This document shows, piece after piece, positions 18,839 through 55,962 of a DNA stretch of 64,000 bases. The stretch comes from Chloroflexota bacterium. GTDB taxonomy: Bacteria > Chloroflexota > Anaerolineae > J036 > Brachytrichaceae. The stretch covers positions 13,613 through 77,612 of the forward strand of contig JAMCQN010000141.1 in the NCBI GenBank assembly GCA_023382055.1, read 5' to 3'. The notes beneath the pieces were generated by a model. The model worked only from the letters and a program-made list of their open reading frames with translations, was not told the DNA's origin and did no database searches. The position numbers and the translations under genes are program-made. Each line of letters starts with the position of its first letter. Position 1 is the stretch's first letter.

Positions 18839-19786
18839 TTATTTCGGCAGGTAACTGGCATCCACCAGCTTATCGTATGCCAGCGGGCTGCTGATCAATC
18901 CTTTCCCCTGCATCCAGTCCTGCACGTCCTTGAATTGCGCTTCGGTTGGAACCGAGGCGCCGGGGAATTTCGGCAATGTGTACTTGCCTTGCAGCGGGGC
19001 AGGGATCAACTTTTTATCGGATAACACGCTACCGTACTTATCCGGCGACGCGTTAATATCGTTGACTGCCTTTTCCAGCGCAGAAAGAAATTTCTTCACC
19101 GTATTGGGCTTCGCTTTCAACGTGGCGGAACTGAATGACCATACACTGTTGCCGATTTCGTTATGAGTTCTGTCATCGGCTATCAGCACGGCGCCGGCCT
19201 GTGCGGCCAGCGACGAGAACGGATCGGGCAATGTGGCTGCCTTCAGTTTGCCTTGCTCGAGCAACTGCATGCGGTCGGTGATCTTTACGACCGGCGTGGT
19301 TTTGATATCGGATGGGCTCAACCCCTCGAGCTGCAGCAGCCGGTCGGTTACATACGCGATCACCGTGCCATCGGAGATGCCGATTTCGACGCCTTTCAGA
19401 TCGGCGGGCTTGGTGATGCCGCTGTCCTTGGCGGCATAGATCGAGTACTGTGCCGAGTCCGGCGTGGCCGTGCGGGCGAATCGCACCACGGCGATCTTCT
19501 GGGTGTTCTTGTTGTACAGCACGGTCGAAACCAGGTCGTTGATCATCCCGTCAATCTGCCCGGCCTGCATCAACTGGTCGCGCTCGGCAGCCGATGCAAC
19601 CGGCACGTACTCCACAGTGATGCCCTCGTTCTTGAAGTAGCCCTGCGAGTCAGCCACATACATCGGCAGCGCTTCCAGCACGGGCAGCAGTCCGATTTTC
19701 AGCGTAGGTGTTTCCGCCGAAGTCTGCGCGCAGGCGCCCAGCAAGGCGCTGAGTACGACCATTGTAACCAGCCATTTCTTAACCAT
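18839..19786 (-). CDS. ABC transporter substrate-binding lipoprotein (NMT1/THI5 / SsuA-like)
   Basis: The signal peptide has a lipobox (MVKKWLVTMVVLSALLGAC). The fold is a periplasmic-binding-protein type 2 family. The ATG at 19786 follows an AAGGA RBS. Confidence 0.75.
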   Translation of the reverse strand: MVKKWLVTMVVLSALLGACAQTSAETPTLKIGLLPVLEALPMYVADSQGYFKNEGITVEYVPVASAAERDQLMQAGQIDGMINDLVSTVLYNKNTQKIAVVRFARTATPDSAQYSIYAAKDSGITKPADLKGVEIGISDGTVIAYVTDRLLQLEGLSPSDIKTTPVVKITDRMQLLEQGKLKAATLPDPFSSLAAQAGAVLIADDRTHNEIGNSVWSFSSATLKAKPNTVKKFLSALEKAVNDINASPDKYGSVLSDKKLIPAPLQGKYTLPKFPGASVPTEAQFKDVQDWMQGKGLISSPLAYDKLVDASYLPK

Positions 19787-38888: not shown

Positions 38889-38917
38889 GACCAGACGCCA
38901 ACTCACTTAACAAGCCG

Positions 38918-38954
38918 GAACCCGGCAGTGGACCACCACTGCCGGGTTCTTTTT
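38918..38954 (+). terminator. canonical rho-independent terminator of the helicase gene
   Basis: GAACCCGGCAGTGG (38918-38931), loop ACCA, CCACTGCCGGGTTC (38936-38949), then TTTTT (38950-38954). Confidence 0.85.
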
Positions 38955-38972: not shown

Positions 38973-40172
38973 TTATCGCGCAGGCGATTCGCGATTCGGA
39001 CCGAAGTGCTTGAGCATGACAATGGGGTCGGTGCTGCTCGGGTTGATGATCCTGACCCCTTCCTGAGCGGCGCGGCACGAGACGAAGTACTCATCGTGGC
39101 TCAGTTGGCCGAACCGCAGCAGGGTCGGCGTCTCGACAGGCCATACTCCCAGCGTGCCGTGACCTTGCAGCATGATCAAGCCGTAGGGCCCTGCGTCGCG
39201 GATGGTAACGGTTCTGCCGGGCAATACAGTCAGCTCCTTGGCAGCGACATACTCGTTGCCGTAGACAATCCACTTTTCCACATACCCATCGCTCTGCATC
39301 TCATCGTAAGGTCTGACCGGACGCGGTTCAAGGAACTGTTCCTCTTTGAAATTCGCTTTGGTATTTGTGTCCCAGTCGATCATCGACACGAGGTAGTCCA
39401 GGTCATGCTGCAGTTCCAGCGGAACATTCTTTACGAGCAGCGACCAGTCCGTGGGGACTTCACTGACCAGCGACTGGAACATGGCGAACACGTCGCTGGC
39501 CCACTGCGGCTCGTAGGTGCATAAACTGCCTGGCGCGTGCAGCACTCCTGCGGGCACATACCACCCGGTGCCTGGCTGCAACCGGTACGCTTTGGACAAG
39601 TCGGTGATGTGGTTGTCGCCCTGATTCCAGATCTCGAGACAATGCCGGACCTGCGCTTTTGTCGTGCCGGGTTCAAGGCCGAAGAACGTGTATGGGAAGT
39701 CGGCGCCGTAATTATTGAGCTGATAGGGGAAGTAGTAGGCCTCCGGCTTTTTGACGGCGCCCACTCTCTCGGCATGTTCCTGCATCTGGTGCAGGTGATG
39801 GGGTAGTGGGCCGCGGTTATCGAAGAACTTCGAATACATCGGCCAACCATGCTGCTCCTTCCATAGCCGGTCGCCGATCAGTTCAGCACCCAGTTCCGCT
39901 ACCAGATCGCGCAGCGGAATCCTCTCGGGATGCTCATCGGCGCCATACAAAACATAGCTGAGCCCTTCGTCCGGAGTCGTCAGCGGACCGTTGTCGGCTT
40001 TGGTCGTCGAGGATAGCCACCGTTCGTCGATGCCGCCGCGGTTAGCCCCAAACGCATACAGGTCATCGGGATGCAATTTGATGCGTTTGCCGGGTATACA
40101 GAATGAGCGCGGAACCCAGACCGGAGCCAGTCTCAAGATACCTTCGCCTTGTTCTAATGCCTGATGTGTCAT
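38973..40172 (-). CDS. cupin-type sugar isomerase-like protein (type I phosphomannose isomerase-like), function uncertain
   Basis: The block YSKFFDNRGPLPHHLHQ resembles the PMI K(V/F)LD...LSIQVHP block, and there is a C-terminal beta-rich domain. The context is mannoside genes. Assignment is weak. Confidence 0.4.
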   Translation of the reverse strand: MTHQALEQGEGILRLAPVWVPRSFCIPGKRIKLHPDDLYAFGANRGGIDERWLSSTTKADNGPLTTPDEGLSYVLYGADEHPERIPLRDLVAELGAELIGDRLWKEQHGWPMYSKFFDNRGPLPHHLHQMQEHAERVGAVKKPEAYYFPYQLNNYGADFPYTFFGLEPGTTKAQVRHCLEIWNQGDNHITDLSKAYRLQPGTGWYVPAGVLHAPGSLCTYEPQWASDVFAMFQSLVSEVPTDWSLLVKNVPLELQHDLDYLVSMIDWDTNTKANFKEEQFLEPRPVRPYDEMQSDGYVEKWIVYGNEYVAAKELTVLPGRTVTIRDAGPYGLIMLQGHGTLGVWPVETPTLLRFGQLSHDEYFVSCRAAQEGVRIINPSSTDPIVMLKHFGPNRESPAR

Positions 40173-40347
40173 TTTCTACCTCGTCAGATTACTCGATTAC
40201 TGCTGCGGCTGAACATGCTGGAATGGTAATGCTACCGCCCGCACAGCCTTTTGCCAAATGGATGGCAGTTCGCGTTTCATTGGCGCATGGCGTGCTTTGA
40301 TGCTATAAGTTGACGCATATGAAAATCCTCGCCGCCGTTGGATCGTT

Positions 40348-41238
40348 ATGAGCATAGTCCCGTTCATCGATTTGCTGGAGCGTGCAGTCCGTAAACATTA
40401 TGCCATCGGCTATTACGAGTCATGGGATCAATACTCACTGGAAGCCGCCATCGAAGCCGCGGAGGAGAGCCAATCGCCTGCCATTCTCGGGTTTGGCGGC
40501 GCAGTAACCAACCAGGGCTGGCTGGATCGATATGGTGTTGAAGAACTCAGCGGGCTGGCAACCTATCTGGCTGAACACAGTTCAGTTCCAACTGCCGTGC
40601 TGTTCAATGAGGCCAGGACATTGAGCCAGGTGCTGCAAGGCTTGCATGCAGGCTGCAATGCCGTAATGCTTGACACCTCGCATCTGCCGTTCGAGGAGAA
40701 TCTGGCCTGGACGCGTAAAGTGGCTGAGGCGGCACATCCGCTGGGTGCAGCGGTTGAGGCCGAACTGGGGCGCCTGGCGGACGGCACAGACCCGCGGGTG
40801 CAGGCCGCAGGCACGCACCCGCAGGAGGCAACCATCTTCGTTGCGCAGAGCGGTGTGGACGCGCTGGCGGTATCCATCGGTAATGTTCACATCCTCACCG
40901 ACGGTGAAGCTCGCGTCAACATTGAGCTTCTGGAGACCATTCACCGCGCAGTCCGCGTGCCGCTGGTCATTCATGGCGGGACGGGATATCCAGCGTCGGC
41001 GGTGCGAGCCGCCATCGAACACGGCGTCGCCAAGTTCAACGTGGGAACGCGCCTGAAACAGGTTTATCTGGCCGGCATCAAAGAGGCCATCGAGGCCATG
41101 CCTGAGAAACCTAATGTGCATCTCTTCGTCGGCTCTCGTGAAACGGATGATGTCTTTGCCAGGGGGAAAAAGCGCCTCAAGGACGAGATAATCCGATATA
41201 TCCACCTGTATGGCTCGGCTGGCATGGCCTCGAGCTAA
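40348..41238 (+). CDS. class II (metal-dependent) ketose-bisphosphate aldolase family protein
   Basis: SPAILGFGGA, MLDTSHLPFEEN, the GNVH block and HGGTGYP block are typical of the FbaA/GatY/KbaY family. Confidence 0.8.
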   Translation: MSIVPFIDLLERAVRKHYAIGYYESWDQYSLEAAIEAAEESQSPAILGFGGAVTNQGWLDRYGVEELSGLATYLAEHSSVPTAVLFNEARTLSQVLQGLHAGCNAVMLDTSHLPFEENLAWTRKVAEAAHPLGAAVEAELGRLADGTDPRVQAAGTHPQEATIFVAQSGVDALAVSIGNVHILTDGEARVNIELLETIHRAVRVPLVIHGGTGYPASAVRAAIEHGVAKFNVGTRLKQVYLAGIKEAIEAMPEKPNVHLFVGSRETDDVFARGKKRLKDEIIRYIHLYGSAGMASS

Positions 41239-42360
41239 ATGAAAGATACAAGGTACACAATGAACTCACGCGAACGTATGATGACTGCCTTGAATAATGG
41301 CCGGCCTGACCGTTTGCCCTGCCAGGTGCACGGCTGGATGGACTACTATCTGCGGCATTACCTGGGCGGCATGGACTGGTGGCAGGCTTATGAAAAATTC
41401 GGCATGGACTATGCCATCTATGTGTCACCCAATTATCAATACTCAGATAAAGACCTGACGCATTGGCGCGTCGAAAGACATGAGTTAGGGACCGATCGGG
41501 ATGGCAATCATCGCTGGGAAGAAACCATCCTGACACCCAAAGGCAATCTGCATCATGCCGGCGCATGGAATGACATCACGCCGTGGGAGACGGAATACCT
41601 GATAAAAACCGAAGACGACTTTGCGATATGGGAAGCGTACCACCCGGCGCCGGTCGGCATCGATTTCACCCCGATACAGAAGGTCAAGGACCGCTTGCGC
41701 GACCGCGGTATCATCCGCAGCCATCCGTTCAGCCCGGGTCAGGGCAGCCCGTGGCAGAGTTTCTGCACACTGGTTGACACCGAGAAAGCCATCATGATGG
41801 CCATGGATTCACCGGATTTTCTTCATCATGCGCTTGATGTCATACTCCAGAAAACCTTGATAGTGCTGGATATGTGGAAAGGCACACCCGCCGATATGGT
41901 TGAAGTCGGCGGCGGGGCGGGTTCGAATACTGTAATCAGCCCTGCGCTGTTCAGGGAATTTTGCCTGCCCTACGACCAGAAGCAAAATGCGATGCTGCAT
42001 GAAGCCGGTCTCAAGGTCGTATACCACCTGTGCGGGGGACTGATGCACATGCTCGATCTGGTGGTTGAGACCGGCGCGGATGGACTTGAGACGATGACGC
42101 CGCCTTCAATGGGCGGCGACTGCGATCTGCGAGAAGCTTCCCGGCGCGTAGGCGACCGGCTGTTCTTTATCGGCGGTTTTGATCAGAACTCCGGTTTCGA
42201 ACACGGCACTCCGGACGTTGCGCGGCGGCAGGTGTTCGATTGTTTTGAGGCGACCAGGGACCACGCGGGCTATATCATCTCGCCTTCGGATCACTTCTTC
42301 CACGGCGATCCTGCCAACCTGCAGGCATTCGCCGATGCCGCCAAGGAATGTTTGTATTAA
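41239..42360 (+). CDS. uroporphyrinogen decarboxylase (URO-D) superfamily protein, MT2/MtaA-like branch (paralog 1)
   Basis: MNSRERMMTALNNGRPDRLP N-terminus and VYHLCGG (HxCG) block are present. The start abuts the aldolase stop. An alternative start lies at the MNSRER Met (41260). Confidence 0.7.
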   Translation: MKDTRYTMNSRERMMTALNNGRPDRLPCQVHGWMDYYLRHYLGGMDWWQAYEKFGMDYAIYVSPNYQYSDKDLTHWRVERHELGTDRDGNHRWEETILTPKGNLHHAGAWNDITPWETEYLIKTEDDFAIWEAYHPAPVGIDFTPIQKVKDRLRDRGIIRSHPFSPGQGSPWQSFCTLVDTEKAIMMAMDSPDFLHHALDVILQKTLIVLDMWKGTPADMVEVGGGAGSNTVISPALFREFCLPYDQKQNAMLHEAGLKVVYHLCGGLMHMLDLVVETGADGLETMTPPSMGGDCDLREASRRVGDRLFFIGGFDQNSGFEHGTPDVARRQVFDCFEATRDHAGYIISPSDHFFHGDPANLQAFADAAKECLY

Positions 42361-42362
42361 CG

Positions 42363-43589
42363 ATGACTAAAATGAACTCACGCGAACGTGTGCTGGCGAC
42401 ATTGAACTTTCAAACGCCCGACAGACTGCCTAAAGATATGGGCGGCATGCTGTCTACAGGCATCAGCGTCTTTGCTTACCCCAGACTTGTGAAGGCTCTG
42501 GGCTTGCCGCCGCGTTTGCCCAGGGTTTACGATACCGGCCAGATGCTGGCGATGCCTGACCTCGACGTGCTGGACGCGCTGGGTTGCGACTGTGTCGTCC
42601 AGTGTTACGGCGCAACCAATGCATTCGAGCAGACGAACTACTGGCATCCATACGATTTCAACGGCCGCCTGCCGGCGCTGGTGCACCAACCGGCTGCCTT
42701 TGAAACGCTCCCCGACGGCAGCATACTGCAGAACGGGTTGACGAAAATGGTGCCGGCATCGTATGTATTCGATGAAGCCCACGGCGGGCAACCGGTGGAC
42801 TGGACCGGCGACCTGCCCATGTACGACCTGAAGCAGTACCGCAAGGAACTTGATAAACGTTTGCTGAAAGATCAGCAAATCGTTGCGTTGCGCGATCTAT
42901 GCAAGCGTGTGCGTGAATCCAGTGACCGCGCCGTGTTCATGAGCGAGGGGTCGATCACGCCTGGCATCTCCATACATGCGCATGGCGGCATGGCGGTGTT
43001 CCCGATATTGTGTGTCACCGAACCGGATTATGTGCACGAACTGCATGATATGATCACTGGAGTCACTGAGCGGAATATCCGCATGTTAATGCCGGAGCTT
43101 GCGCCGTATGTGGATGTCGTCATGGCAGCGGCCGACGACTGGGGTACGCAGAACACGACCATCGCCTCGCCGGCGGTATTTCGCGAGCTGTTTCTGCCGT
43201 ACAGGCGCCGTATCAACGCAGCATTTCATAGCGCGGCGCCGCCGGTGAAGATATTCCTGCATACCTGCGGCGCAATCTATGACATCATCGATCTGGTTAT
43301 CGAGGCTGGCTTTGATGTGCTCAATCCCGTGCAGTGGTGCGCAGGTAAACGCTCATTCAGGGAGTGGAAAGATAAAGCGCGCGGCAGGATCGCGCTCTGG
43401 GGCGGCGGTGTGAACTCTCAGGTTACACTCCCATTGGGGTCAGTTGAAGACGTGGCGCGCGAGGCAACCGAAGTGGCCCGATATCTCAAACAGGACAACG
43501 GGTATGTCTTCTGCAATATCCATAACATCCTGGCGGAAATCGCGCCAGAAAAGGTCATTGCGATGTATCACGCAGCGGGCGCTGCTTAA
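42363..43589 (+). CDS. URO-D superfamily protein, MT2/MtaA-like branch (paralog 2)
   Basis: MTKMNSRERVLATLNFQTPDRLP N-terminus, LHTCGA (HxCG) and a distal FCNIH block are present. The alternative upstream start at 42348 would overlap the previous gene by 13 nt. Confidence 0.7.
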   Translation: MTKMNSRERVLATLNFQTPDRLPKDMGGMLSTGISVFAYPRLVKALGLPPRLPRVYDTGQMLAMPDLDVLDALGCDCVVQCYGATNAFEQTNYWHPYDFNGRLPALVHQPAAFETLPDGSILQNGLTKMVPASYVFDEAHGGQPVDWTGDLPMYDLKQYRKELDKRLLKDQQIVALRDLCKRVRESSDRAVFMSEGSITPGISIHAHGGMAVFPILCVTEPDYVHELHDMITGVTERNIRMLMPELAPYVDVVMAAADDWGTQNTTIASPAVFRELFLPYRRRINAAFHSAAPPVKIFLHTCGAIYDIIDLVIEAGFDVLNPVQWCAGKRSFREWKDKARGRIALWGGGVNSQVTLPLGSVEDVAREATEVARYLKQDNGYVFCNIHNILAEIAPEKVIAMYHAAGAA

Positions 43590-43649
43590 CGCAATCGCGA
43601 ACGCTGTTACATCGATTGTTGATATCACAGCACGGATTGATAAGAATCT

Positions 43650-46394
43650 ATGGCAAAAAGAACCGTTCATTTTGTGTTAAGCACGCACTGGGATCGCGAG
43701 TGGCGGGAGTCATTCCAGGAACTGCGCTATGACCTCGTCCGGTTGATAGACCGCGTTGTAGCCGGGCTGCAGGATGGCCGGTTACAAGGACCATTCCAGA
43801 CGGATGGCCAATCCATCATTGTGGAAGATTATCTTGAGGTCCGTCCGGAGCGCCGTACGGTGATCGAACGATTGGCGTCAAGGGGTAAACTCGTCGTTGG
43901 CCCCTGGTACACCATGCCGGATGAGTTCACGGTATCAGGCGAATCGTTGATCCGCAACCTGCGCCTGGGCCGCGACATTGCCCGGTCGCTTGGGGGCCGG
44001 CCCTCATTGGCCGGCTATGTGCCCGATATGTTCGGCCACACCAGCCAGTTGCCACAGATTCTTGCGGGATTTGGCATTCACGGCGCCTATCTCTGGCGCG
44101 GCGTCAATAACGTCGAAACCCGCAACCTGATCTGGCGCGGCGCCGATGGCACGGAACTGATATGCCACAGGTTCGGCCGAATCGGTTATGGGACATACGC
44201 CTTTCTGGTGCGGCACGGGCATGATTTTGGTGAGACTGAGTACGACAGCACGGAGTTTGCACGGCGGCTGGATCAGTATCTGGCGGATGAAGCCCGCGCA
44301 ACTGCGGTGGATCCGATATTGGTGTTGGACAGTTGCGACCATCAGGAATGGGATGAGCCGGCTTATGCTTTATTGCAGGAGTACTTTACTCGGGCCGACT
44401 GCCCCTATGACTTTATGCATACCAGCCTGGATGCCTATCTGGATGAGTTGGTCCGGCAGAAAGACCGTATCACGACTGTGTTGACAGGCGAGTTGCGTGA
44501 GCCGGGCCGCGCAACGGTACAGCCGGGTCAGTCTGCGCTCGACGCCGATCAACAGTGGGTCATCCCAGGGGTGCTCTCAAGCAGGGTGTGGATGAAACAG
44601 GCGAATCGCGCCAGTGAAACCGCCTTGTGCCAGTGGGCGGAACCATTTTCAACATTTGCGTGCGCCGCCATAGGCGCTGAGTATCCGCAGGGCTTTCTGG
44701 ATATCGCCTGGCGGCACCTGCTTAAAAATCACGCGCATGACTCGATCGATGGCTGCAGCATCGACCAGGTCCACCGCGATATGGGTTACCACTTCGACCA
44801 GTCGCTGCTGATCGGCAACCGCCTTGCCAAAGAAGCGACACACCAGTTGGCTGCGCGCGTGCAGGGAGCCATAGACCGGAACGAGTTGCGCGTTGTCGTG
44901 TTCAATCCGGCTGCGCGGCCATTCGACGGCGTCGCCGAACTGACACTGCAGATTCCGACGGAATGGCCTTGCTTCAATGAGTTCTTCGGATTCGAACCAA
45001 AGCCGGCATTCCGCATCTATGCGCCCGATGGCGTCGAAATCCCCTATCAGCGTCTCGGCCAGGCGATGGATCGCATCAAGACGCGCATACGTCCCACCAA
45101 GTTCCCGGATGCTTATCGCACCAATGATATCAAGGTGGCGCTCAACATGACGATACCTGCGGTTGGGTATACCACGCTCATTGTGCGCGCAGCTACGGCC
45201 GGACAACCGACCCGCTACGTGGATGTGCCTGGCCTGGCTAAAGACGCTTTCACACTGGAAAATGAGCATATGTGGGTTCGCGTCGCGCCGGATGGCACGC
45301 TGGCGCTGGTGGATCGACATACCGACCAGATGTACCTGAACCTGCTTCATTACGAGGACAGCGCGGATATCGGGGATGGCTGGTATCACGGCGTGGGGGT
45401 CAACGATCAAGTATTCAGTTCAACCGGATCGCGCTGCGATGTGGCGGTGGTGCACAATGGCCCACTGTGCGCGACATTGCGCATACGCACGGTGATGCAT
45501 GTGCCGGCGCAGTTTGATTTCTCGCGAATGGCCCGTTCGGCGTCATTCAGCGAACTTGTCATCGACAGCCTGATCACATTGCGCGCCGGACAACCCTACC
45601 TGGATGTTGAGACCACGGTCGACAATCAGATCGACGATCACCGGTTGCGTGTGCTGCTGCCGACCGGCGTGCACGCGGAAAGTTACCTTGCCGACAGCGC
45701 GTTCGACGTGGTTGAACGCCCCATCGCTTTGCGCGCCGATAACCATCTGTATCGCGAACTGGAAGTGGAGACTAAGCCGCAGCAGAGCTGGACAGCGGTG
45801 TTCGACCGCGACAAAGGGCTGGCGATCATTACACAAGGCCTGCTGGAAAGCGCAGTTCGCGATCTACCCGATCGTTCGCTGGCCTTGACGTTGTTTAGGA
45901 GCACGCGCAGGACCGCGCTCACCGACGGTGAACCGGATGGCCTGATGCACAGCAAGCTGACATTCTCATATCGCATCATGCCATTGAGCGGTGAGCCTGA
46001 CCGGACGCGCCTGTGCGAACTTGGCATGCAACTGTCCGCCGGGCTGCGCGATGCCCAACTGCGCAGCCAGGATATCTCCAACTACAGTCACCGCCCCTCC
46101 ACTCATCCGGAAGCAATACTCGCGCCATCCGGAAGTTTGCTCAAACTGGACGGTGACGCCGTGATGACAAGTCTGCGCAGCCTTGATAATGCTGTTGAAG
46201 TGCGCTTGTTTAACCCGCGAGATACGCCGATACACGGCGCCCTGGCGCTCGATGCGTCCATTCGCCCCGGATGGACGACGGCTCAGCAGGTGGATTTTGA
46301 AAGTAATCCCACCGAGGCAGCGCAGATGATCAATAATGGAACGGTGTCATACAACCTGTCTGCTAAGCAAATCATCACATTGCGGCTGACATAG
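43650..46394 (+). CDS. glycoside hydrolase family 38 alpha-mannosidase (cytoplasmic, MngB-like)
   Basis: The N-terminus VLSTHWDREW, PDMFGH block, HDSIDGCS block and ~900 aa length fit GH38. There is no signal peptide. Confidence 0.85.
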   Translation: MAKRTVHFVLSTHWDREWRESFQELRYDLVRLIDRVVAGLQDGRLQGPFQTDGQSIIVEDYLEVRPERRTVIERLASRGKLVVGPWYTMPDEFTVSGESLIRNLRLGRDIARSLGGRPSLAGYVPDMFGHTSQLPQILAGFGIHGAYLWRGVNNVETRNLIWRGADGTELICHRFGRIGYGTYAFLVRHGHDFGETEYDSTEFARRLDQYLADEARATAVDPILVLDSCDHQEWDEPAYALLQEYFTRADCPYDFMHTSLDAYLDELVRQKDRITTVLTGELREPGRATVQPGQSALDADQQWVIPGVLSSRVWMKQANRASETALCQWAEPFSTFACAAIGAEYPQGFLDIAWRHLLKNHAHDSIDGCSIDQVHRDMGYHFDQSLLIGNRLAKEATHQLAARVQGAIDRNELRVVVFNPAARPFDGVAELTLQIPTEWPCFNEFFGFEPKPAFRIYAPDGVEIPYQRLGQAMDRIKTRIRPTKFPDAYRTNDIKVALNMTIPAVGYTTLIVRAATAGQPTRYVDVPGLAKDAFTLENEHMWVRVAPDGTLALVDRHTDQMYLNLLHYEDSADIGDGWYHGVGVNDQVFSSTGSRCDVAVVHNGPLCATLRIRTVMHVPAQFDFSRMARSASFSELVIDSLITLRAGQPYLDVETTVDNQIDDHRLRVLLPTGVHAESYLADSAFDVVERPIALRADNHLYRELEVETKPQQSWTAVFDRDKGLAIITQGLLESAVRDLPDRSLALTLFRSTRRTALTDGEPDGLMHSKLTFSYRIMPLSGEPDRTRLCELGMQLSAGLRDAQLRSQDISNYSHRPSTHPEAILAPSGSLLKLDGDAVMTSLRSLDNAVEVRLFNPRDTPIHGALALDASIRPGWTTAQQVDFESNPTEAAQMINNGTVSYNLSAKQIITLRLT

Positions 46395-46817
46395 GAACAA
46401 CGACGGATGCTGACCATCCGGAGAAGCCGCCCGTACTGACTGAGGCATCGCAGAGATACAAACCAGCGGAAGAGCAAATCAGTACCGCAGAACTATCCAC
46501 GGTAATCAATACACAGGCGGGCCGCGAGGATCGTTTGTCGAGTGAAGTCGATGTCTCGGCTCTGGCGGCGTTGCGCTAGCGCTTGGCAAGGCGCAAGATA
46601 ACGGTATCCCACGACAGCATTGTGCCACAGGCTGCTTGACGAATCAGGCAGACGAGATCAGGCGATGCCTTCATGTGGGTCACGCTGAGTTATCGACCGG
46701 AGCAGCTCGCTGATCTTGCGGCGATGCGCTTGATGCAGTCGTTTGTGCGACTGGTTGAAGGCCCCGACTTGCTGATCTGAGTACGCCAAGGTATTCACCC
46801 TTTTTACTTCCCTTGTG

Positions 46818-47903
46818 TTATGCGTTATATCGACCCAGTTCGAGGCCGCGTTCTATGAAGTACTGGTATGTATCGTAGTTGACCGTATTCGGTATCGAGT
46901 GATCGCTGTGCAGAACGTAGCCATTATTCCCTTTGACGATAGGGATTATTGACTCCAGTTCAGCGTCGATGATCGACCGGTCGTTGGTATAGAGTGTTCG
47001 TACGTCGATCCCGCCCATGAACGACAGCCTGTCGCCATACTGTTTATAGAGCTTCAGCAGATCCATGCCCGCTTTCACCTCAATGACTTGCAGGCAATCG
47101 ATACCGGCTTCCAGAAGTCCCGGTATGAGCGGCTCGACATATCCGCACGAGTGCAGGATGACAGGCAGGTCATGGCTTTTGGCGAAACCGATATCGAGTT
47201 TATGAGCCGGCAGCATGATCTCCCGATACATGCGCGGCGACATGAACGGGCGGTGCTTGAATCCCATATCCTCGTAATACCAGATACCGTCGGGCCAACC
47301 TTCCTCGGCAAACAGGATTTCCTGCAACTCAACGGTCAGTCGGGCGTACGTATTCGCCATATCGCGCACCCAGTCGGGGTCCTCCGCCATGCCGATGAGC
47401 ATGAACTCGTGGCCGCAGACGTCTTTCATGATCTCGAAAACGTTTACGCCGGACCACGCGAAGAAACGATTCGCATTACGCGAGCTTTCCTTCGCATCGC
47501 GATAAGCCTGGAAGTTGATGCGGCGGCGGTCCGGCGTCAGCTTTGGTTTGATGTGGCGTTCCCAACCAGCCCGATCGCGCACCAGGAAATCCACATGCTC
47601 CGGTGTTGAGTCATGCAGCTTATGCGTGCGAAAGAGCGCTCCATTGCCATTGCGGGCCAGACGCGTCTCGCTTGTTTCCTCGATGACTTCGTCTACGTAG
47701 TCCAGATCGGCAATCATGTTGAATGGCCAGCACAGATCGAGGTCGAAACCGAAGTGATCCGCGAAGTTCTCATCCGGTTTTATATTCCCGCGCTGTGTCC
47801 ATGCAGACTGGGTATCCGACCAGAAGTGCTCAAACAACCCGATACGATCAATCGGCTGGCGTTTTAATATCCGTGAGATGCGTTCTTTTCCTGTGAGTTC
47901 CAT
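46818..47903 (-). CDS. URO-D superfamily protein, MT2/MtaA-like branch (paralog 3)
   Basis: MELTGKERISRILKRQPIDRI N-terminus and LHSCGY (HxCG) block are present. It has the C-terminal layout of the family. Confidence 0.7.
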   Translation of the reverse strand: MELTGKERISRILKRQPIDRIGLFEHFWSDTQSAWTQRGNIKPDENFADHFGFDLDLCWPFNMIADLDYVDEVIEETSETRLARNGNGALFRTHKLHDSTPEHVDFLVRDRAGWERHIKPKLTPDRRRINFQAYRDAKESSRNANRFFAWSGVNVFEIMKDVCGHEFMLIGMAEDPDWVRDMANTYARLTVELQEILFAEEGWPDGIWYYEDMGFKHRPFMSPRMYREIMLPAHKLDIGFAKSHDLPVILHSCGYVEPLIPGLLEAGIDCLQVIEVKAGMDLLKLYKQYGDRLSFMGGIDVRTLYTNDRSIIDAELESIIPIVKGNNGYVLHSDHSIPNTVNYDTYQYFIERGLELGRYNA

Positions 47904-47966
47904 GGTGATATGTACTTGATGTATGCCTGCTTATATAGCGGATGTCTTTAGTGCCTGCGGTGATGT

Positions 47967-48761
47967 CTACCAACTGTCGACGGGTTGCTGCAAGCCCTCC
48001 GTGATCCAGAGAAACTGGCCGTTGATTGTTGCCGCGTCGTCGCTGATGATCCGCAAAACGAGGTCCGCTGCCTTCTCGGGCGGATCGCCGCCGGTTTCAT
48101 CTACCCAGCGTGCCCACGATCGGTAGCCCTCGCCCTTCGGACCGGTTCCGGCTATCTCATCCCGGATGTGAGCCCACATATCTGTCTTGACTTCGCCTGG
48201 ATGAATGACATTAGCCGTTACACCAGTTCCCTTCAACTCGGAAGCCAGGTGTCGGGTGAACTGATTGAGTGCGGCTTTACTGGCGCCGTATGCGCTGTTA
48301 AGCGGGCCGGGGGTGTGCAACGCTGCCGCTGATGAGACATTGATAATGCGACCCCAGCCTGACTCAATCATTGCGCCAGCGAATGCACGGCATGTAAGGT
48401 AAGGCGCAATCGTGTTGACGGTCAGTGTTTCAATCCAGCGTAGCGGATCGCTTTCATGGATCAACTGAAGCGGTCCAAACACACCCGCAGCGTTGACAAG
48501 AATCTGGGCTATGCCCAATGCATCTCGAACACGCGACTGCAAGATATGTATGACGTGACTATCGGCAATATCGCAGGGGATCGCGATAGCGCTTGCGCCT
48601 GTGTCGCGTATGCGCCGCTCGATCTCAGACAGTTGTAAAGCATTGCGCGCCACTAACGCGACTTTGACGCCGTGTGAGGCCAGGGATAATGCGATGGCTG
48701 CGCCGATTCCGCGGCTGGCGCCGGTCACGACCGCGACCTTATCCACTATATGCTGATTCAT
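47967..48761 (-). CDS. short-chain dehydrogenase/reductase (SDR)
   Basis: VAVVTGASRGIG (TGxxxGxG), NAAG and YGASKAAL (YxxxK) motifs are present. Start is uncertain: ATG at 48761 or 48770, or a GTG at 48794 that overlaps the upstream stop. Confidence 0.85.
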   Translation of the reverse strand: MNQHIVDKVAVVTGASRGIGAAIALSLASHGVKVALVARNALQLSEIERRIRDTGASAIAIPCDIADSHVIHILQSRVRDALGIAQILVNAAGVFGPLQLIHESDPLRWIETLTVNTIAPYLTCRAFAGAMIESGWGRIINVSSAAALHTPGPLNSAYGASKAALNQFTRHLASELKGTGVTANVIHPGEVKTDMWAHIRDEIAGTGPKGEGYRSWARWVDETGGDPPEKAADLVLRIISDDAATINGQFLWITEGLQQPVDSW

Positions 48762-48790
48762 CGTTAACATCGCGTAAATTGCATCATTAA

Positions 48791-49867
48791 TCACTTACCG
48801 ATGACGACGTTTGTCCCAGTCTGAACCGAACGCATGGCGCCCTCGATGATTTTCATCGCGTATAGCCCCAGCGTCGCAGGAGAACCATTTGGCGCTTTGC
48901 CCAGGATTGCATCAATCAAATTGAGTGCTGGCGCGAAACGAGGGGACCTCTCTTCGGGGGCCGGTTCCGGAAATGTTGTGGCATTGCCATCGATATCGTG
49001 AAACTCGAGTTGGCCCCTGATCAGGTCCATGGTCGCAGCGCCTTTGGCGCCGGATGCGCGGATCTCCCAGCGAGCATCACGCGGCATGGGCAATCCATGA
49101 CTGGTGAGCGACACAAGCGCGCCGTTGGCCAGCTTTGCATTGATGACGTCAAACACGTCCACGGCGGCGCCGTTGTTGTCGAAGCGCGCGAACACCTCAA
49201 CCGGGTCGGATTGCGTGATAAAGCCCAGCATGGCGGCTGCATGCGACACCTGTGTATAAATCTGTCCGCCGCCGGCGACTTCAGGATCGCTGTACGAGCC
49301 GACGCCCGGCATTCGATACGGCAGGCGCTCCGGGTGCTTCTCGGCGTCGATGCGGAAAGCCTTGTCCAGCGGCTGGCCTTCGTATAAACCGGCGACGTTG
49401 TTAGTAAACAGCAGGCTGATAACTTTGAGCTGGCCTAATGCGCCGGTCTCGATCAGACGGCGCGCTTCGATAGCGCATGCGTTGTAGTGCCACGGGCAAC
49501 TGATGATGAAGTGCAGTTTGTTCCGCGCGGCCAGATCGACCAGTTCCTGCGCCTGCGCAACAGTGATCGTCATCGGTTTTTCGATGACGAGATGTTTGCC
49601 GTGTTCCAGAGCCGCTCTGGCTTGCTCATAGTGGACGTTCGGCGTGGTGCTGATGATCACTGCATCCAGGCCGTCGATGGCGAGAATCTCATCCATGGTA
49701 GTGCACGCCAGCGGCACGTTGAAATCATCCGCGATCTTGCGCGCTTTTTCAATCGTCCGCGCCTGCACCGCCACCAGTTCGGCCTGCGGATGTTTCTTCA
49801 ACGCTGGTATGTGCGCATTGGCGCCCCACCAACCCGCTCCAACAACGGCGACTTTGACAGTTCTCAT
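48791..49867 (-). CDS. Gfo/Idh/MocA family oxidoreductase
   Basis: VAVVGAGWWG Rossmann motif and the IEKPM (EKP) motif are present. Confidence 0.85.
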   Translation of the reverse strand: MRTVKVAVVGAGWWGANAHIPALKKHPQAELVAVQARTIEKARKIADDFNVPLACTTMDEILAIDGLDAVIISTTPNVHYEQARAALEHGKHLVIEKPMTITVAQAQELVDLAARNKLHFIISCPWHYNACAIEARRLIETGALGQLKVISLLFTNNVAGLYEGQPLDKAFRIDAEKHPERLPYRMPGVGSYSDPEVAGGGQIYTQVSHAAAMLGFITQSDPVEVFARFDNNGAAVDVFDVINAKLANGALVSLTSHGLPMPRDARWEIRASGAKGAATMDLIRGQLEFHDIDGNATTFPEPAPEERSPRFAPALNLIDAILGKAPNGSPATLGLYAMKIIEGAMRSVQTGTNVVIGK

Positions 49868-49992
49868 TCCAGCCTCCAGATCGGTATAGTTTTAATCTGT
49901 GCCGTATTGTACGAGTCAATCGCAAAACGCAAAGTATGACTTCTGGTAAAGTGTGAACACAACTAATCGGCAGGTAATGGAGCAACATACAT

Positions 49993-52638
49993 ATGACACA
50001 AACTGCGCACGTTGTTTCACATACGCACTGGGACCGCGAGTGGTACAGGCCTTATCAGGTCTTTCGCGCACGGCTGATCGAGGCCATCGACGCCGTTCTT
50101 GACCTGCTGGAACGCAGACCGGACTATCGCTTTTTCCATCTGGATGGCCAGACGATTGTGCTGGATGACTATCTGGAAATCAGGCCGGAGAAGGAACCGC
50201 TTCTGCGCAAGTTTATCCAGGAGGGTCGTCTCCTGGTCGGCCCATGGTATACCCAGCCCGATGAGTTCCTGGTCAGCGGAGAGGCGATGGTGCGGAATCT
50301 GCTCATGGGCGGCAGGGCGGCTGAAGCCATGGGCGGGTGCATGGCGCTGGGATACCAGCCCGACTCGTTCGGTCACGCCAGTCAGATGCCGCAGATTTAT
50401 GCGGGTTTTGGTTTCCCTGCGGCCGTGTTGTTTCGCGGCATTACCGCAGACCAGGTTCGCAGTGTTTTCAAATGGGTAGGCGCCGATGGAACCGCCCTGC
50501 CCACCATCAAAATGCCGGATGATGATGCGTACAGCAATTACCTGTATCGGCTGCGCGAAACGCTAGCGGATTCCAAACCGCTCAACACAGATCGTCTGGA
50601 CGGCGAGTTGGCGCGCCTGCGCGATGAAACCGAATCAATGGCGGTCTGCGACCACCTGCTGTGGATGGATGGTGTTGACCACATATTCCCTAACCCGAAA
50701 ACGCCTGACATCATCAGGTACGCGAACCAAACTCTGGCAGGTATGAATGTGATTCACTCGACGCTGCCCGAATATGTAAGGCAAGTGCTGCTTGCCGCGC
50801 CAGAGCTTACAGAACAGGCCGGTGAACTGCGCCACGCTAATCGGCAGTGGCGGTTGCAGGCCGTGCTGGCGAACGTGGCTTCATCGCACATCGGGATCAA
50901 ACAGGCCAACTTCAGTGCACAGGTTGCGCTGGAACGTATCGTCGAACCGCTTTGCAGTATGGCATGGCTGCGCGGAGCGGAATATCCCTATCGCCATCTC
51001 CAGGTCGCCTGGAAACTGCTGCTGCAAAATCATGCGCACGACAGCATCTGCGGTTGTTCCGTGGATCGCGTGCACCGCGACATGCACTACCGATTTGCGC
51101 AGATATTCGACATTGCGGATGTCATCAAAACACGCGCACTCAAGGCGCTGGCCGATCAGGTGGATACCGCCGCTGCCCAGCCCAATCAACAAGTGCTGCT
51201 CGTGTTCAATCCGCTGCCCTGGCAACGCCGCGAGACGATCGTCGTGGATGCGCCGATGCCTGCTGGCACGCGGGGCGATCTGTTGACGACCACGATTGCC
51301 GGCGAGGGGGTGGCGAGCCAGGCGCTTGGCATCCATGAAAGCGGACGCCTGCAGCAGCCTCGCTATGACATTCCGAGTATGGATAACCGTCGCAACTACC
51401 GGCTTGCGCTCAATGCGCAGATGCCTGCTTATGGCTTTGCGGCATTCTGCGTCTCACCATCGGATACCCCGCAGCGCCCACAAGGCACGCTCTTTACGGG
51501 GATGCGCACGATGGAAAACCGCCTGCTTAGCGTCACCGTGGAAGACGACGGCGCCATCACGCTGACGGCGAAGCAATCGGGCAAGGTCTATCGCGGACTG
51601 CTGGCCTTCGAGGATTGCGGCGATGGCGGCGAGGGGTGGAACTGGATACCGCCTCGCTTCGACCGGGTTTATACATCCCGCGGCGCATCGGTCGAAGTTT
51701 CGCGCGAGCACGATGGCCCGCTGCTGGCATCCCTGCGATTGCGCATGAAGTTCCGTGTGCCGGCTGGCTTTGTGGGCGTACCTTACGAACATGACCCGGC
51801 GCGCATGCAGCGCAGCAACGAACTGGTTGACATGCCAATCGATGCTTTATTGACTCTGGGCGCGGAATCCAGGCGGCTGGATATAGCGCTCACGGTCGAT
51901 AATCCGGCGCGCAACCATCGTCTGCGCGTGTTGTTCCCGACGAATATCGCCACAGACCATTGTTTCGCCGACGGCGCGTTCGATGTTATCCGGCGCTCTA
52001 TCGCGCAGCCGGACAGCCACGACTGGCGCGAGCCGCAACTCGGCACATACCCGCACAGCTCGTTTGTATGCGTCGAGGATGCCGATTGCGGCCTGGCCAT
52101 CCTGACTGCCGGAACACCTGAGTACGAAGTCGTTGATGACGCCAGTCGCACCGTGGCGATTACCCTGTTGCGTGCCTTCGGCCGTGGCGCCGGCGAACCG
52201 CATGAATACGTCGATAGCCAGGAACCTGGTCTGCACACTTACCGTCTTGCCGTGCTGCCTTATGCCGGCCGCTGGGAGGACGACGATGTTATGCGGGAGT
52301 CGCGTGCATTTGCCGTGCCGCTGCTGCCGGTGCTCACCACGCGTCATGCCGGCATAATCCCGGTAGATCATTCCCTGTTGCAGATCGAGGGCGACGGCAT
52401 CGACGTTACGGCCATCAAGCGCTGTGAAGAGCGCAATAGCATGCTGGTGCGGATGGTCAATCTATCCAGCGATTCGCAACCGATCACCTTGAATGCCGGC
52501 GTGCCCTGCGTTCATGCTTATGAGCTGGATCTCGCCGAGAAGCGCCATCAGCCACTGCAACTCGATGCCGATGGGTCGTTGCGCGTCATGTTACGCCCGC
52601 GTCAGATCGTCACGCTGGAGTTAGTTCCTGGAACGTGA
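49993..52638 (+). CDS. glycoside hydrolase family 38 alpha-mannosidase (second cytoplasmic paralog)
   Basis: VVSHTHWDREW, PDSFGH and HDSICGCS blocks are present. It is collinear with the 43650-46394 product and has no signal peptide. Confidence 0.85.
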   Translation: MTQTAHVVSHTHWDREWYRPYQVFRARLIEAIDAVLDLLERRPDYRFFHLDGQTIVLDDYLEIRPEKEPLLRKFIQEGRLLVGPWYTQPDEFLVSGEAMVRNLLMGGRAAEAMGGCMALGYQPDSFGHASQMPQIYAGFGFPAAVLFRGITADQVRSVFKWVGADGTALPTIKMPDDDAYSNYLYRLRETLADSKPLNTDRLDGELARLRDETESMAVCDHLLWMDGVDHIFPNPKTPDIIRYANQTLAGMNVIHSTLPEYVRQVLLAAPELTEQAGELRHANRQWRLQAVLANVASSHIGIKQANFSAQVALERIVEPLCSMAWLRGAEYPYRHLQVAWKLLLQNHAHDSICGCSVDRVHRDMHYRFAQIFDIADVIKTRALKALADQVDTAAAQPNQQVLLVFNPLPWQRRETIVVDAPMPAGTRGDLLTTTIAGEGVASQALGIHESGRLQQPRYDIPSMDNRRNYRLALNAQMPAYGFAAFCVSPSDTPQRPQGTLFTGMRTMENRLLSVTVEDDGAITLTAKQSGKVYRGLLAFEDCGDGGEGWNWIPPRFDRVYTSRGASVEVSREHDGPLLASLRLRMKFRVPAGFVGVPYEHDPARMQRSNELVDMPIDALLTLGAESRRLDIALTVDNPARNHRLRVLFPTNIATDHCFADGAFDVIRRSIAQPDSHDWREPQLGTYPHSSFVCVEDADCGLAILTAGTPEYEVVDDASRTVAITLLRAFGRGAGEPHEYVDSQEPGLHTYRLAVLPYAGRWEDDDVMRESRAFAVPLLPVLTTRHAGIIPVDHSLLQIEGDGIDVTAIKRCEERNSMLVRMVNLSSDSQPITLNAGVPCVHAYELDLAEKRHQPLQLDADGSLRVMLRPRQIVTLELVPGT

Positions 52639-54828: not shown

Positions 54829-55962
54829 CTACATCAGCCAACGCGCCAGCCAGTCGAAAGCGTCCTGTTGCATCGCGCGGTTGAATTGATGCGGAACATC
54901 ATAGAAGCGCGACTGAAACCGCTCAGGCAGTCCGGCCTTCGCGTAGTTGCGTTCGATCTTGTTGCAGGCGCTTTGCATGCCCTCATAAGTAAAAAGCTCG
55001 TCCCGCGCGCATTCCTGCGCGAAAAACGCGGCGGGCATGCCAATAGAGACAACATCGCTCAGTTCGAAGTTCGCTGCCAATCCCGGCACGAATTGCGCCC
55101 AGGAATGCGAGCGGACATGCATGGGCAAAAGGTCCCTCCAGTTGGTCATCCAGCCGATCGTCACCGCGGCTTTGATGCGCGGGTCGGTTGCCAGCAGGTA
55201 GTTATTCCTGTGACCGCCCATCGATAAACCGAGGCAACCGATGCGCTCGGGATCGACTTCCGGACGCGTCAGGAGGTAATCCACACTCATCCGATCGTCG
55301 TGCGACATGATGCCCAGCCAGGTTGCACCAGCAGCGAAAATGTGGCGGGCGACCACCTCTTCGAAAGCGGAGCACTGTTCGTGATATGCGGATAGCGACT
55401 CGGTCAAGGTGCTGATTCGCGATTGCATGCGTGCGAGCAGGTCAGGGTCAATGGCGCTGAAGTCGATGCGGCGTTCGCCGAAGTAAAACGCATCGATCAC
55501 GACGACGACAAAACCCAATCGCGCGAGTTCGGTGGCGTAAGAACGCCCGGAGTAATAGGTCTCTTTGAAGAGCGTCAGGTCGCTGGCCTCGTGTTCAACC
55601 TGAACAAGCTTTTCCTTGCCGTAGGTATAAAAACCGCCGTGGTCGTGCAATGCAACGATGCCGGGCGCCGGGCGAGTCTGGCGGGCGGGCTTCAGGAGAT
55701 AAGCCGGCACACGCACCCCCGGCGCGCTGCTGAATGTCAGGCTTTCACGGATGACGCCGTCGTGCTGCGCGACCTCCTTGATCTCCGGTGCAAGTGGAAC
55801 CTGTGGCGGCCGGTAGCGCAGCAGTTCCATCAATCGCTTGCGCGCTTCCGACTGCCAGTTCTGCAAATCGGTGTATCGCTCGTTCAGGAAAGATCGTTCC
55901 GGTTTGTTCTGATTGGCGATCAGCTCGATCACAGGATAAAGGTTTCCCAGTGTAGCGGTCAT
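54829..55962 (-). CDS. alpha/beta hydrolase (acetyl-xylan-esterase / dienelactone-hydrolase-like)
   Basis: The GLSMGGH nucleophile elbow (GxSxG) and the VALHDHGG oxyanion-region block are present. There is no signal peptide. Confidence 0.65.
   Translation of the reverse strand: MTATLGNLYPVIELIANQNKPERSFLNERYTDLQNWQSEARKRLMELLRYRPPQVPLAPEIKEVAQHDGVIRESLTFSSAPGVRVPAYLLKPARQTRPAPGIVALHDHGGFYTYGKEKLVQVEHEASDLTLFKETYYSGRSYATELARLGFVVVVIDAFYFGERRIDFSAIDPDLLARMQSRISTLTESLSAYHEQCSAFEEVVARHIFAAGATWLGIMSHDDRMSVDYLLTRPEVDPERIGCLGLSMGGHRNNYLLATDPRIKAAVTIGWMTNWRDLLPMHVRSHSWAQFVPGLAANFELSDVVSIGMPAAFFAQECARDELFTYEGMQSACNKIERNYAKAGLPERFQSRFYDVPHQFNRAMQQDAFDWLARWLM

Follow-up and report, generated by a model that had tools for sequence, protein, structure and literature searches.

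Three uncharacterised UroD-superfamily families with a zinc motif in a GH38-containing carbohydrate locus of a Chloroflexota bacterium

The known members of the UroD superfamily are HemE, MetE, epoxyalkane:coenzyme M (CoM) transferase and the corrinoid methyltransferases (PMC10418091). A zinc sphere of the His-Cys-Cys type marks the S-methyltransferases of this superfamily, and in its O-methyltransferases one or both Cys residues are replaced by Asp, Glu or non-ligands; in the corrinoid methyltransferase systems known so far, the carrier and the activase are usually encoded nearby (Kountz and Balskus, PMC10418091). Several UroD-superfamily paralogues can be encoded side by side in non-methanogens, as in the Type 1 mlp clusters coding for MtaA-like proteins, for which zinc ligands and genomic neighbourhood served to infer the function (Kountz and Balskus 2023, PMC10418091). 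Here, we report on a nine-gene locus in a 64,000-nucleotide stretch of DNA of a Chloroflexota bacterium (contig JAMCQN010000141.1; hereafter the window), in which genes for three UroD-superfamily proteins, that we called URO-D-a, URO-D-b and URO-D-c, lie among genes for two GH38 enzymes, an aldolase and oxidoreductases. Judging from full-text literature searches, good descriptions exist of the superfamily and of its known chemistries, but not of the three families, of how conserved they are or of their systematic occurrence in glycan-degradation loci. These searches yielded no publication on the families, and the general paper on the superfamily cited above was the only useful one.

An open reading frame (ORF) listing of the window recovered all nine genes of the first-pass annotation at exactly the same coordinates (38973–52638), and Pfam bore out the families that it had named for eight of them. 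The ninth, its 'PMI-like cupin' (for mannose-6-phosphate isomerase), is weakly supported, as described below. The features of the locus are as follows.

38917–38950, plus strand: strong GC-rich hairpin and T-run, separating the helicase gene from the end of g1 (15-bp stem with 10 GC pairs, T tract; consensus scan only)
38973–40172, minus strand: g1, 399-residue protein of an uncharacterised family, possibly a remote PMI-type cupin (weak 1qwr and Cupin_2 similarity); divergent from the aldolase operon
40348–41238, plus strand: g2, class II (metal-dependent) ketose-phosphate aldolase, nearest to YdjI (PF01116, E = 6e-63)
41260–42360, plus strand: g3, URO-D-a, 366-residue UroD-superfamily protein (PF01208, E = 2.4e-25)
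42363–43589, plus strand: g4, URO-D-b, 408-residue UroD-superfamily protein (PF01208, E = 2e-16); directly upstream of GH38-1
43650–46394, plus strand: g5, GH38-1, 914-residue cytoplasmic enzyme of the GH38 alpha-mannosidase family (GH38 N-terminal, middle and C-terminal domains)
46818–47903, minus strand: g6, URO-D-c, 361-residue UroD-superfamily protein (PF01208, E = 1.1e-14); last in the Gfo-SDR-URO-D-c operon
47967–48794, minus strand: g7, SDR-family oxidoreductase (adh_short, E = 1e-50)
48791–49867, minus strand: g8, Gfo/Idh/MocA sugar oxidoreductase (GFO_IDH_MocA PF01408, E = 6e-29, plus PF22725)
49993–52638, plus strand: g9, GH38-2, 881-residue cytoplasmic GH38 enzyme (four GH38 domains); divergent from g8

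The locus is a cytoplasmic carbohydrate-catabolic cluster, and its three URO-D proteins represent three distinct, widespread, highly conserved and functionally uncharacterised families of an MtaA/MetE-like, zinc-motif branch of the UroD superfamily. Their pairwise identities amount to 23–27%; they are therefore ancient paralogues and not the products of a recent expansion. They score 89.7, 60.4 and 54.7 bits with PF01208 against a gathering threshold of 23.9, the match of URO-D-a spanning its C-terminal half only. HemE shares this family and the fold with them, and its E-values and TM-scores come close to those of MtaA. HemE proteins harbour the N-terminal substrate-binding signature ...W.MRQAGR... 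(PROSITE pattern). In contrast, no HemE model of NCBIfam matched any of the three URO-D proteins at E <= 1e-3, a regular-expression search found the RQAGR motif in none of them, and the position of the HemE LFGKG motif is taken in the alignment by H-x-C-G, a metal motif that HemE lacks. None of the three proteins is thus a HemE orthologue, and such orthology would have refuted the reading in the first-pass annotation; the missing model matches and RQAGR motif refuted an identity as HemE. No other haem or tetrapyrrole gene was found among the annotated ORFs of the window (some ten ORFs at 11.8–20.7 kb fall outside this annotation). Since the HemE signature is missing and the metal motif is present, decarboxylation of a uronate or of a glycerate-type aglycone, which had been proposed at first, is disfavoured.

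We used NCBIfam model scores together with PDB matches as a surrogate for a phylogeny to place the three proteins relative to HemE, MtaA, MtbA and CmuA. Their only NCBIfam matches are to MtaA/CmuA/MtbA models, and all are sub-threshold, with MtaA/CmuA scores (TIGR01463 and PRK06252) of 53, 40 and 33 bits against cut-offs of 235 and 244; the cut-offs of the MtaA/CmuA/MtbA models span 235–600. AlphaFold models of URO-D-a and URO-D-b (pLDDT of 90.6 and 92.0, respectively) predict a (beta/alpha)8 UroD-type fold for both. In Foldseek searches the best matches were MtaA structures (4ay8 and 4ay7 for URO-D-a, 4ay7 for URO-D-b), with HemE structures close behind; all top matches were MtaA or HemE, with a probability of 1.00 and target-normalised TM-scores (TMt) of 0.59–0.70. 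The second tier consisted of sugar epimerases, aldolases and GH10 barrels, and MetE structures were among the matches of URO-D-a. Both models show an extra beta-rich insertion of about 60 residues in the N-terminal third (in URO-D-a, six strands at residues 51–112) that is missing in the reference enzymes of ~340 residues.

The H-x-C-G motif, present as HLCG, HTCG and HSCG in the three URO-D proteins, is invariant in the alignments of all three families. In URO-D-b and URO-D-c (LHSCG in the latter) it aligns with the zinc motif LHICG of MtaA (4ay7). The invariant residues are H256-x-C258-G and D344-H345 in URO-D-a, H300-x-C302-G and C384 in URO-D-b, which amounts to a His-Cys-Cys pattern, and H251-S-C253-G and H332-S-D334-H335 in URO-D-c. 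The column of the third ligand, as defined by alignment and not by geometry, thus holds C384 in URO-D-b, a variable residue followed by D344-H345 in URO-D-a, and H332 in URO-D-c. All three proteins are therefore putative zinc proteins, and URO-D-b would have the ligand pattern of S-type enzymes; URO-D-a and URO-D-c, without the second Cys, would have an oxygen-type pattern.

MtaA, MtbA and MtsA (the MT2 enzymes; PDB 4ay7) have the same fold and the aligned H-x-C-G motif, and URO-D-b also shares their second Cys. In contrast with MT2 systems, the URO-D proteins show structural identities of 14–16%, sub-threshold model scores and the additional insertion, and their locus, which codes for neither CoM metabolism nor a corrinoid protein, belongs to bacterial glycan catabolism and not to methanogenesis. 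OdmB, VdmB and their relatives, corrinoid-dependent aromatic O-demethylases of the same superfamily, likewise occur as several paralogues and move O-methyl groups via a corrinoid protein. Like URO-D-a and URO-D-c, they lack one or both Cys in the zinc site, a likeness drawn from the published rule (PMC10418091) and not from sequence comparison. However, their substrates are aryl methyl ethers, and their genes accompany those for a corrinoid protein, an activase and a folate methyltransferase; such partners are absent from the window. Compared with the proteins of the mlp clusters, the three URO-D families are much further from MtaA, mostly occur without those partners and are found in carbohydrate contexts.

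All three families are large. Searches returned 1906 hits for URO-D-a, >2500 for URO-D-b and >4000 for URO-D-c, with identities of 73–89%, 64–84% and 72–92%, respectively, among the top 120, which are distributed over many phyla. We collected the 80 best species-representative genomes with a URO-D-a orthologue (67–89% identical), all of which are metagenome-assembled genomes (MAGs). Among these best 80, the orthologues span Chloroflexota, Planctomycetota, Verrucomicrobiota, Lentisphaerota, Kiritimatiellia and Armatimonadota, and also occur in Hydrogenedentota, Spirochaetota, Actinomycetota, Fibrobacterota, Latescibacterota and Limnochordia. Two cultured anaerobes, Mahella australiensis and Caldicoprobacter guelmensis, are among the top URO-D-c matches. 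A tblastn search of 72,556 plasmids detected no URO-D-a or URO-D-b orthologue.

To analyse gene neighbourhoods, we called the ORFs of related loci (labelled L001 onward) with a filter on third-codon-position G+C (GC3) and start trimming. The first-pass annotation treated the nine genes as one cluster; a conserved nine-gene unit was rejected, as only sub-modules recur even among the closest Chloroflexi relatives. In these, the aldolase gene is directly upstream of that of URO-D-a (L001–L006), and the aldolase/URO-D-a/URO-D-b module is kept, with copies of g1 that are 81–82% identical near the aldolase in L002, L006 and L091. An insertion of ~5 kb separates URO-D-a from URO-D-b in L005/L084, and L084 has a Gfo/SDR/(421-residue protein)/URO-D-c module. 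No GH38 gene lies within 10 kb in L002, L004 or L005/L084. In L002, the position of the mannosidases is taken by a DUF6259 protein, two more URO-D-like genes, an Fe-ADH and an E1/E2 dehydrogenase complex.

In more distant lineages, GH38 genes do adjoin those of URO-D proteins, as the first-pass annotation had anticipated for other genomes. We compared direct neighbours with an internal control, the genes at least three positions away in the same loci, by a Fisher test. GH38 accounts for 5 of the 135 genes directly adjacent to URO-D-a versus 1 of 461 at three or more positions (odds ratio 18, p = 0.003), and for 8/136 versus 1/192 in the case of URO-D-b (odds ratio 12, p = 0.0045). The eight loci in which GH38 directly adjoins URO-D-b are L088, L089, L100, L111, L129, L136, L158 and L169; in seven of them (L088, L089, L100, L111, L129, L158 and L169) the two genes are co-directional, with gaps of 9–102 bp, as in the window. 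In L111 the order is GH2/URO-D-b/GH38, with further URO-D-like genes ahead. The partner GH38 enzymes of the other loci belong to different subfamilies, with identities of <30% to both g5 and g9. Of the 80 URO-D-a loci, 24 contain at least two URO-D-like genes, as expected for pairs of the MT1/MT2 type. The three families are thus statistically linked to GH38 and to one another. The linkage is real but partial: GH38 neighbours occur in about 6–11% of the loci only, and ~90% of the URO-D-a and URO-D-b loci have none.

The other recurrent neighbours are URO-D-like paralogues, regulators of the AraC, LacI and ROK types, MFS_2 and Opp-type ABC transporters, GH2, GH42, GH29, CE15, sulfatases, PhyH dioxygenases, Gfo/Idh/MocA proteins, xylose-isomerase-like TIM barrels, MR_MLE dehydratases, PfkB kinases with class II aldolases, and genes of the IU-nucleoside-hydrolase family. 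In Mahella australiensis, URO-D-c is surrounded by a sugar ABC transporter, two sulfatases, a GH123, a xylose-isomerase-like TIM barrel, a small cupin and an MR_MLE dehydratase.

We searched the window and 163 related loci for corrinoid proteins by motif scan, Pfam and tblastn. Corrinoid proteins of the MtaC type (about 211 residues, PF02607 + PF02310) are encoded in three of the 163 loci, L028, L053 and L164. In L053, the 211-residue corrinoid protein is encoded 44 bp from URO-D-a, with an unclassified family of 452 residues on the other side. The order in L164 is ROK, URO-D, corrinoid protein, xylose-isomerase-like TIM barrel, URO-D, URO-D-b, 411-residue protein and GH94. L028 contains, within 10 kb, a corrinoid protein, two AraC regulators, a URO-D-c-like gene, DUF1638 and a RACo activase, followed by PhyH, AraC, URO-D-a and Gfo. 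DUF1638 also adjoins URO-D-a in L052, and a MetH-like protein without activation domain is encoded close to URO-D-a in L022. Used as a tblastn query against the related loci, the RACo of L028 was found in that locus only. The corrinoid proteins of these three loci are no more than suggestive of a link to the URO-D families. The one in L053, an Acidimicrobiaceae MAG, has an unusual partner directly upstream, a 512-residue fatty-acid-desaturase/Rieske fusion (L053:3662–5200).

The explanation that we consider best, and propose tentatively, is that URO-D-a, URO-D-b and URO-D-c depend on zinc and act on alkyl groups bound to heteroatoms, which they would remove or transfer. The most plausible of such groups are sugar O-methyl groups, and the corrinoid carrier would be encoded outside the locus. 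Each of them keeps the H-x-C motif of the methylcobamide:CoM methyltransferase/MetE branch, which argues for the alkyl-transfer type and against tetrapyrrole decarboxylases, and carbohydrate functions surround them throughout (GH38, GH2, GH42, GH29, CE15, sulfatases, MFS_2, LacI/AraC/ROK), which we counted in favour of sugar methyl groups. The glycans of algae, plants, fungi and bacteria commonly contain methylated sugars, such as 3-O- and 6-O-methyl-mannose, 6-O-methyl-galactose, 4-O-methyl-glucuronate and 2-O-methyl-fucose, and the methylation blocks glycosidases. To our knowledge, the sole described route of methyl-sugar removal is an oxygen-dependent cytochrome P450 system; the literature searched yielded no anaerobic one.

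We infer the methyl transfer, its substrate, the corrinoid partner and the order of the steps as follows. The locus would handle imported mannoside-type glycans in the cytoplasm, where the two GH38 enzymes would cut alpha-mannosidic bonds. URO-D-a and URO-D-c would demethylate the sugar, the methyl group would be carried by a corrinoid protein whose gene would lie in another part of the genome, and URO-D-b would hand it to a thiol acceptor. For the unblocked sugar we envisage oxidation by the Gfo and SDR proteins, isomerisation by the PMI-like cupin, phosphorylation by a kinase not encoded at the locus and, last, cleavage by the YdjI-like class II aldolase.

Several observations weigh against this explanation. 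MtaA is only a distant relative (E = 4e-5 to 0.18, 14–16% identity, far under the NCBIfam cut-offs), the zinc binding is read from alignments only, and a Cys/His zinc site can equally serve as a plain Lewis acid. Neither a corrinoid protein nor a RACo activase nor a folate enzyme was detected in the window by motif scan and tblastn, and among the 163 related loci just three code for a small corrinoid protein and one more for a MetH-like protein. This rarity argues against an obligate dependence on corrinoids, unless a shared carrier is encoded elsewhere. In L164 and L028, moreover, the corrinoid proteins adjoin other URO-D-like genes, which are possibly their real partners. We found in the searched literature no described precedent for the corrinoid-dependent cleavage of aliphatic sugar methyl ethers, and the families are present in lineages generally regarded as aerobic, e.g. 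Fimbriimonadaceae and Capsulimonadaceae. Finally, the contexts with PfkB kinase and aldolase, MR_MLE dehydratases or xylose-isomerase-like TIM barrels fit an ordinary sugar conversion equally well. The O-demethylation that the first-pass annotation gave as one option is thus a plausible candidate only: the conserved MtaA-type H-x-C motif and the few loci with corrinoid protein, RACo or DUF1638 lend it some support, and the window itself provides neither carrier nor activase.

A metal-dependent conversion of the GH38 product or substrate on the TIM barrel without methyl transfer, for example isomerisation, epimerisation, elimination, hydration or hydrolysis, is nearly as likely and would have to be held just as cautiously; the metal site would then be re-used for Lewis-acid or acid-base catalysis. 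It would account for the >95% of loci, the window included, that are devoid of corrinoid components, and several gene arrangements suit it: an aldolase and a PfkB kinase accompany URO-D-b in L105, an MR_MLE gene is two genes from URO-D-b in L132, L150, L153 and L154, Gfo and SDR genes adjoin URO-D-c in both the window and L084, and the URO-D-c of Mahella lies amid a xylose-isomerase-like TIM barrel, a cupin and an MR_MLE dehydratase. The second-tier fold matches to sugar epimerases, aldolases and GH10 barrels go in the same direction. URO-D-b orthologues that are >60% identical pair with GH38 subfamilies that are <30% identical, which suggests a link to the common product mannose and not to a special decoration, and the very high conservation of the families suits a small, universal substrate. 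However, no member of the UroD superfamily is known for such chemistry. The strict H-x-C-G motif and the His-Cys-Cys pattern of URO-D-b are hallmarks of the alkyl-transfer branch, and it would be left unexplained why genes for a corrinoid protein, RACo or DUF1638 are closely linked in some loci.

The His-Cys-Cys pattern of URO-D-b, which favours soft S or Se ligands, also raises the question of alkyl transfer without cobalamin. Zinc alkyltransferases of the MetE or epoxyalkane:CoM transferase type could directly join a thiol or selenol to a sugar-derived electrophile, or split the two, with methylthio-sugars or thiol adducts as possible substrates, and corrinoid genes would then be expected to be missing from most loci. 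The MetE structures among the fold matches of URO-D-a agree with this, and nucleoside hydrolase genes beside URO-D-a in L081 and URO-D-c in L173 could point to the salvage of methylthio-nucleosides or ribose. We nevertheless consider it unlikely: sulfur-metabolism genes occur neither in the cluster nor among the common neighbours, the second Cys is missing in URO-D-a and URO-D-c, and the dominant context is glycan degradation, not the salvage of methionine or sulfur.

The juxtaposition with GH38 might also be functionally meaningless, the URO-D-like genes belonging to another pathway in a gene-dense, rearranged region. The neighbourhoods are indeed highly variable, and the Chloroflexi relatives that keep URO-D modules without GH38 nearby, like the ~90% of loci without it, would be understandable on that basis. 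We give it little credence, as GH38 is 12–18 times commoner directly beside URO-D-a and URO-D-b than at least three genes off, seven independent contigs have the co-directional GH38/URO-D-b pair with short gaps, and the gaps in the window are operon-like. An ordinary mannosylglycerate or mannoside pathway with bona fide HemE or methanogen-type MtaA orthologues, suggested by Pfam's filing of the three proteins under URO-D and by MngB being the best NCBIfam match of both GH38 enzymes, is highly improbable given the MngB scores of 363 and 485 bits against a cut-off of 1138, the HemE and MtaA/CmuA results above, the absence of other haem genes from the window, and the absence of glycerate kinase, phosphotransferase system (PTS) and mannosylglycerate genes. 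No characterised pathway of this kind accounts for the locus, and the uncharacterised step that the first-pass annotation suspected there is real.

Returning to the removal of sugar methyl groups, a broader proposal, which we regard as doubtful, is that the three families, together with a related, unclassified family of 410–450-residue proteins and other paralogues, form a widespread, unrecognised guild of zinc enzymes that would strip O-methyl or other small alkyl groups from sugars without oxygen and pass them via a shared corrinoid carrier to a thiol. This guild would span Chloroflexota, Planctomycetota, Verrucomicrobiota, Lentisphaerota, Armatimonadota, Spirochaetota and some Firmicutes. 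If it exists, it would do the work of the P450 methyl-sugar demethylases under anaerobic conditions, and glycosidases such as GH38 could act only afterwards. The three families, with thousands of members each and 64–92% identity across phyla, are found beside carbohydrate-active enzymes and are named 'uroporphyrinogen decarboxylase' or 'hypothetical' by annotation pipelines. Whatever their chemistry, assigning them a function would correct a large block of misleading annotation and add a step to models of glycan turnover for Chloroflexota and the PVC group (Planctomycetota, Verrucomicrobiota and relatives), and the cultured Mahella australiensis offers an experimental entry point.

A family of 370–450-residue proteins is encoded beside URO-D-a, URO-D-b or URO-D-c in 10 loci (e.g. 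L053:262–1620, L084:1440–2705, L164:7214–8449 and L088:7669–8793). Its members have no Pfam match other than a faint one to URO-D (E = 0.16), and probably constitute a further divergent UroD-like paralogue. In L084 the gene is inserted between those of the SDR and URO-D-c; the family is absent from the window.

The GH38 enzymes themselves are typical of bacterial cytoplasmic ones. GH38 N-terminal, middle and C-terminal domains are all above the Pfam gathering scores in both g5 and g9, which are 33% identical to each other. Their N-termini read MAKRTVHFVLSTHWDREW and MTQTAHVVSHTHWDREW, with the motifs ...STHWDREW and ...HTHWDREW, and the catalytic domain starts at residue 4–5 (residue 5 in g5). 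There is therefore no room for a signal peptide, and both proteins are cytoplasmic, in line with the first-pass annotation. Its label 'mannosylglycerate-hydrolase type' was, in contrast, non-specific, as HWDREW occurs throughout the cytoplasmic GH38 subfamily of bacteria and the scores with the MngB model (NF007331) fall far short of its cut-off. The nearest solved relatives of the GH38 enzymes are the cytoplasmic SpGH38 of S. pyogenes (2wyh) and E. faecalis enzyme (3lvt), with E about 1e-126, as found for g9. The two enzymes thus share with SpGH38, 3lvt and MngB the domain architecture, the N-terminal HWDREW metal motif and the lack of a signal peptide; they are not MngB equivalogs, and their genes are set among UroD-like ones, not PTS, ROK or GH1 genes.

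The aldolase g2 scores 213 bits with PF01116 and is below the cut-offs of all 20 NCBIfam models of fructose-bisphosphate (FBA) and tagatose-bisphosphate aldolases. Its nearest solved protein is the E. coli aldolase YdjI (6ofu, E = 2e-42), which acts on unusual long-chain ketose phosphates. The aldolase and PfkB kinase ahead of URO-D-b in L105 resemble YdjH-YdjI of the ydj sugar cluster; in contrast, the nine-gene locus has no kinase, transporter or regulator. NCBIfam and comparison with solved structures gave no specific family assignment for the SDR protein g7 or for g8. The latter has sub-threshold matches only, to models of xylose, inositol, levoglucosan and glycoside 3-dehydrogenases, and its nearest solved relatives are assorted sugar dehydrogenases. 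For g1, no Pfam or NCBIfam match was above threshold. It weakly resembles the B. subtilis mannose-6-phosphate isomerase 1qwr (E = 0.29, two short motifs, HPDD and PAGxLHA) and has a sub-threshold match to Cupin_2 in a Pfam scan at E <= 1 (E = 0.055), so that the PMI-like label is plausible but weak. Its uncharacterised family comprises 1654 representatives at 50% identity (E <= 1e-3).

Gene callers and homologues led us to correct the start of URO-D-a to 41260 (the longest ORF begins at 41239) and that of URO-D-b to 42363 (42348 in the ORF listing). The gaps between g2, g3, g4 and g5 are then 21, 2 and 60 bp. On the opposite strand, g8 and g7 overlap by 4 bp, which suggests co-transcription, and g6 lies 63 bp further on; g1/g2 and g8/g9 are divergent pairs. 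The annotated ORFs inside the nine-gene cluster include no uptake transporter, kinase or regulator, which for transporters and regulators agrees with the first-pass annotation. In the annotation of the NCBI Prokaryotic Genome Annotation Pipeline (PGAP; locus tags M1434_02430 onward), g1, g4 and g6 are 'hypothetical' and g3 is a 'uroporphyrinogen decarboxylase family protein'. The cluster is flanked by genes for a DEAD-box helicase and a fused ABC_membrane+ABC_tran exporter-type protein, and the hairpin at 38917–38950 is probably its left boundary. In a promoter scan, sites were no more frequent than in shuffled sequence, making the scan uninformative. A 423-bp non-coding gap (46395–46817), with several weak terminator-like hairpins, separates the convergent ends of GH38-1 and URO-D-c; a 35-residue ORF has been called there in another assembly.

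Additional observations concern the neighbours of the URO-D genes. In L002 (Thermoflexales), the module is followed at 12352–19309 by a third URO-D-like gene, the Fe-ADH, genes for thiamine-dependent E1 alpha/beta and E2 proteins, and a fourth URO-D-like gene, the E1/E2 complex being of the acetoin or 2-oxoacid dehydrogenase type. DUF6259 proteins are encoded beside URO-D-a or its aldolase module in L002 (6762–8885), L175 (11076–12395) and L176 (10627–11919); the one in L002, given its position in place of the mannosidases, may be an unrecognised glycoside hydrolase. The inosine-uridine nucleoside hydrolase genes (PF01156) are at L081:9045–9977 and L173:10144–11097. A gene for a PhyH-family dioxygenase is present at 34791–35612 of the window, 3.4 kb upstream of the cluster, and PhyH directly adjoins URO-D-a in five unrelated loci (L028, L033, L035, L038 and L073), often with an AraC regulator. 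Just past the cluster, at 54829–55962, an Abhydrolase_7-family esterase is encoded; in a Hydrogenedentota locus a gene of this family (L082:8710–9951) is directly upstream of URO-D-a, together with BNR_2, GH42 and sulfatase genes.

The rest of the window includes, on the plus strand at 311–11842, a second sugar-type cluster that codes for an Amidohydro_2 protein, an AraA-like isomerase, two Gfo/Idh/MocA proteins, a xylose-isomerase-like TIM barrel, a sulfatase, a sulfotransferase, an FGGY kinase, a fucose-isomerase-like protein and a 253-residue ORF without Pfam match. This cluster may be the source of a kinase for the nine-gene cluster. An E1-beta-like gene is located at 28048–29028. The dnaA gene is found at 31025–32434, and the lowest G+C content of the window (0.519, at 30–32 kb) lies just upstream; the chromosomal replication origin is therefore probably situated there, ~7 kb from the cluster.

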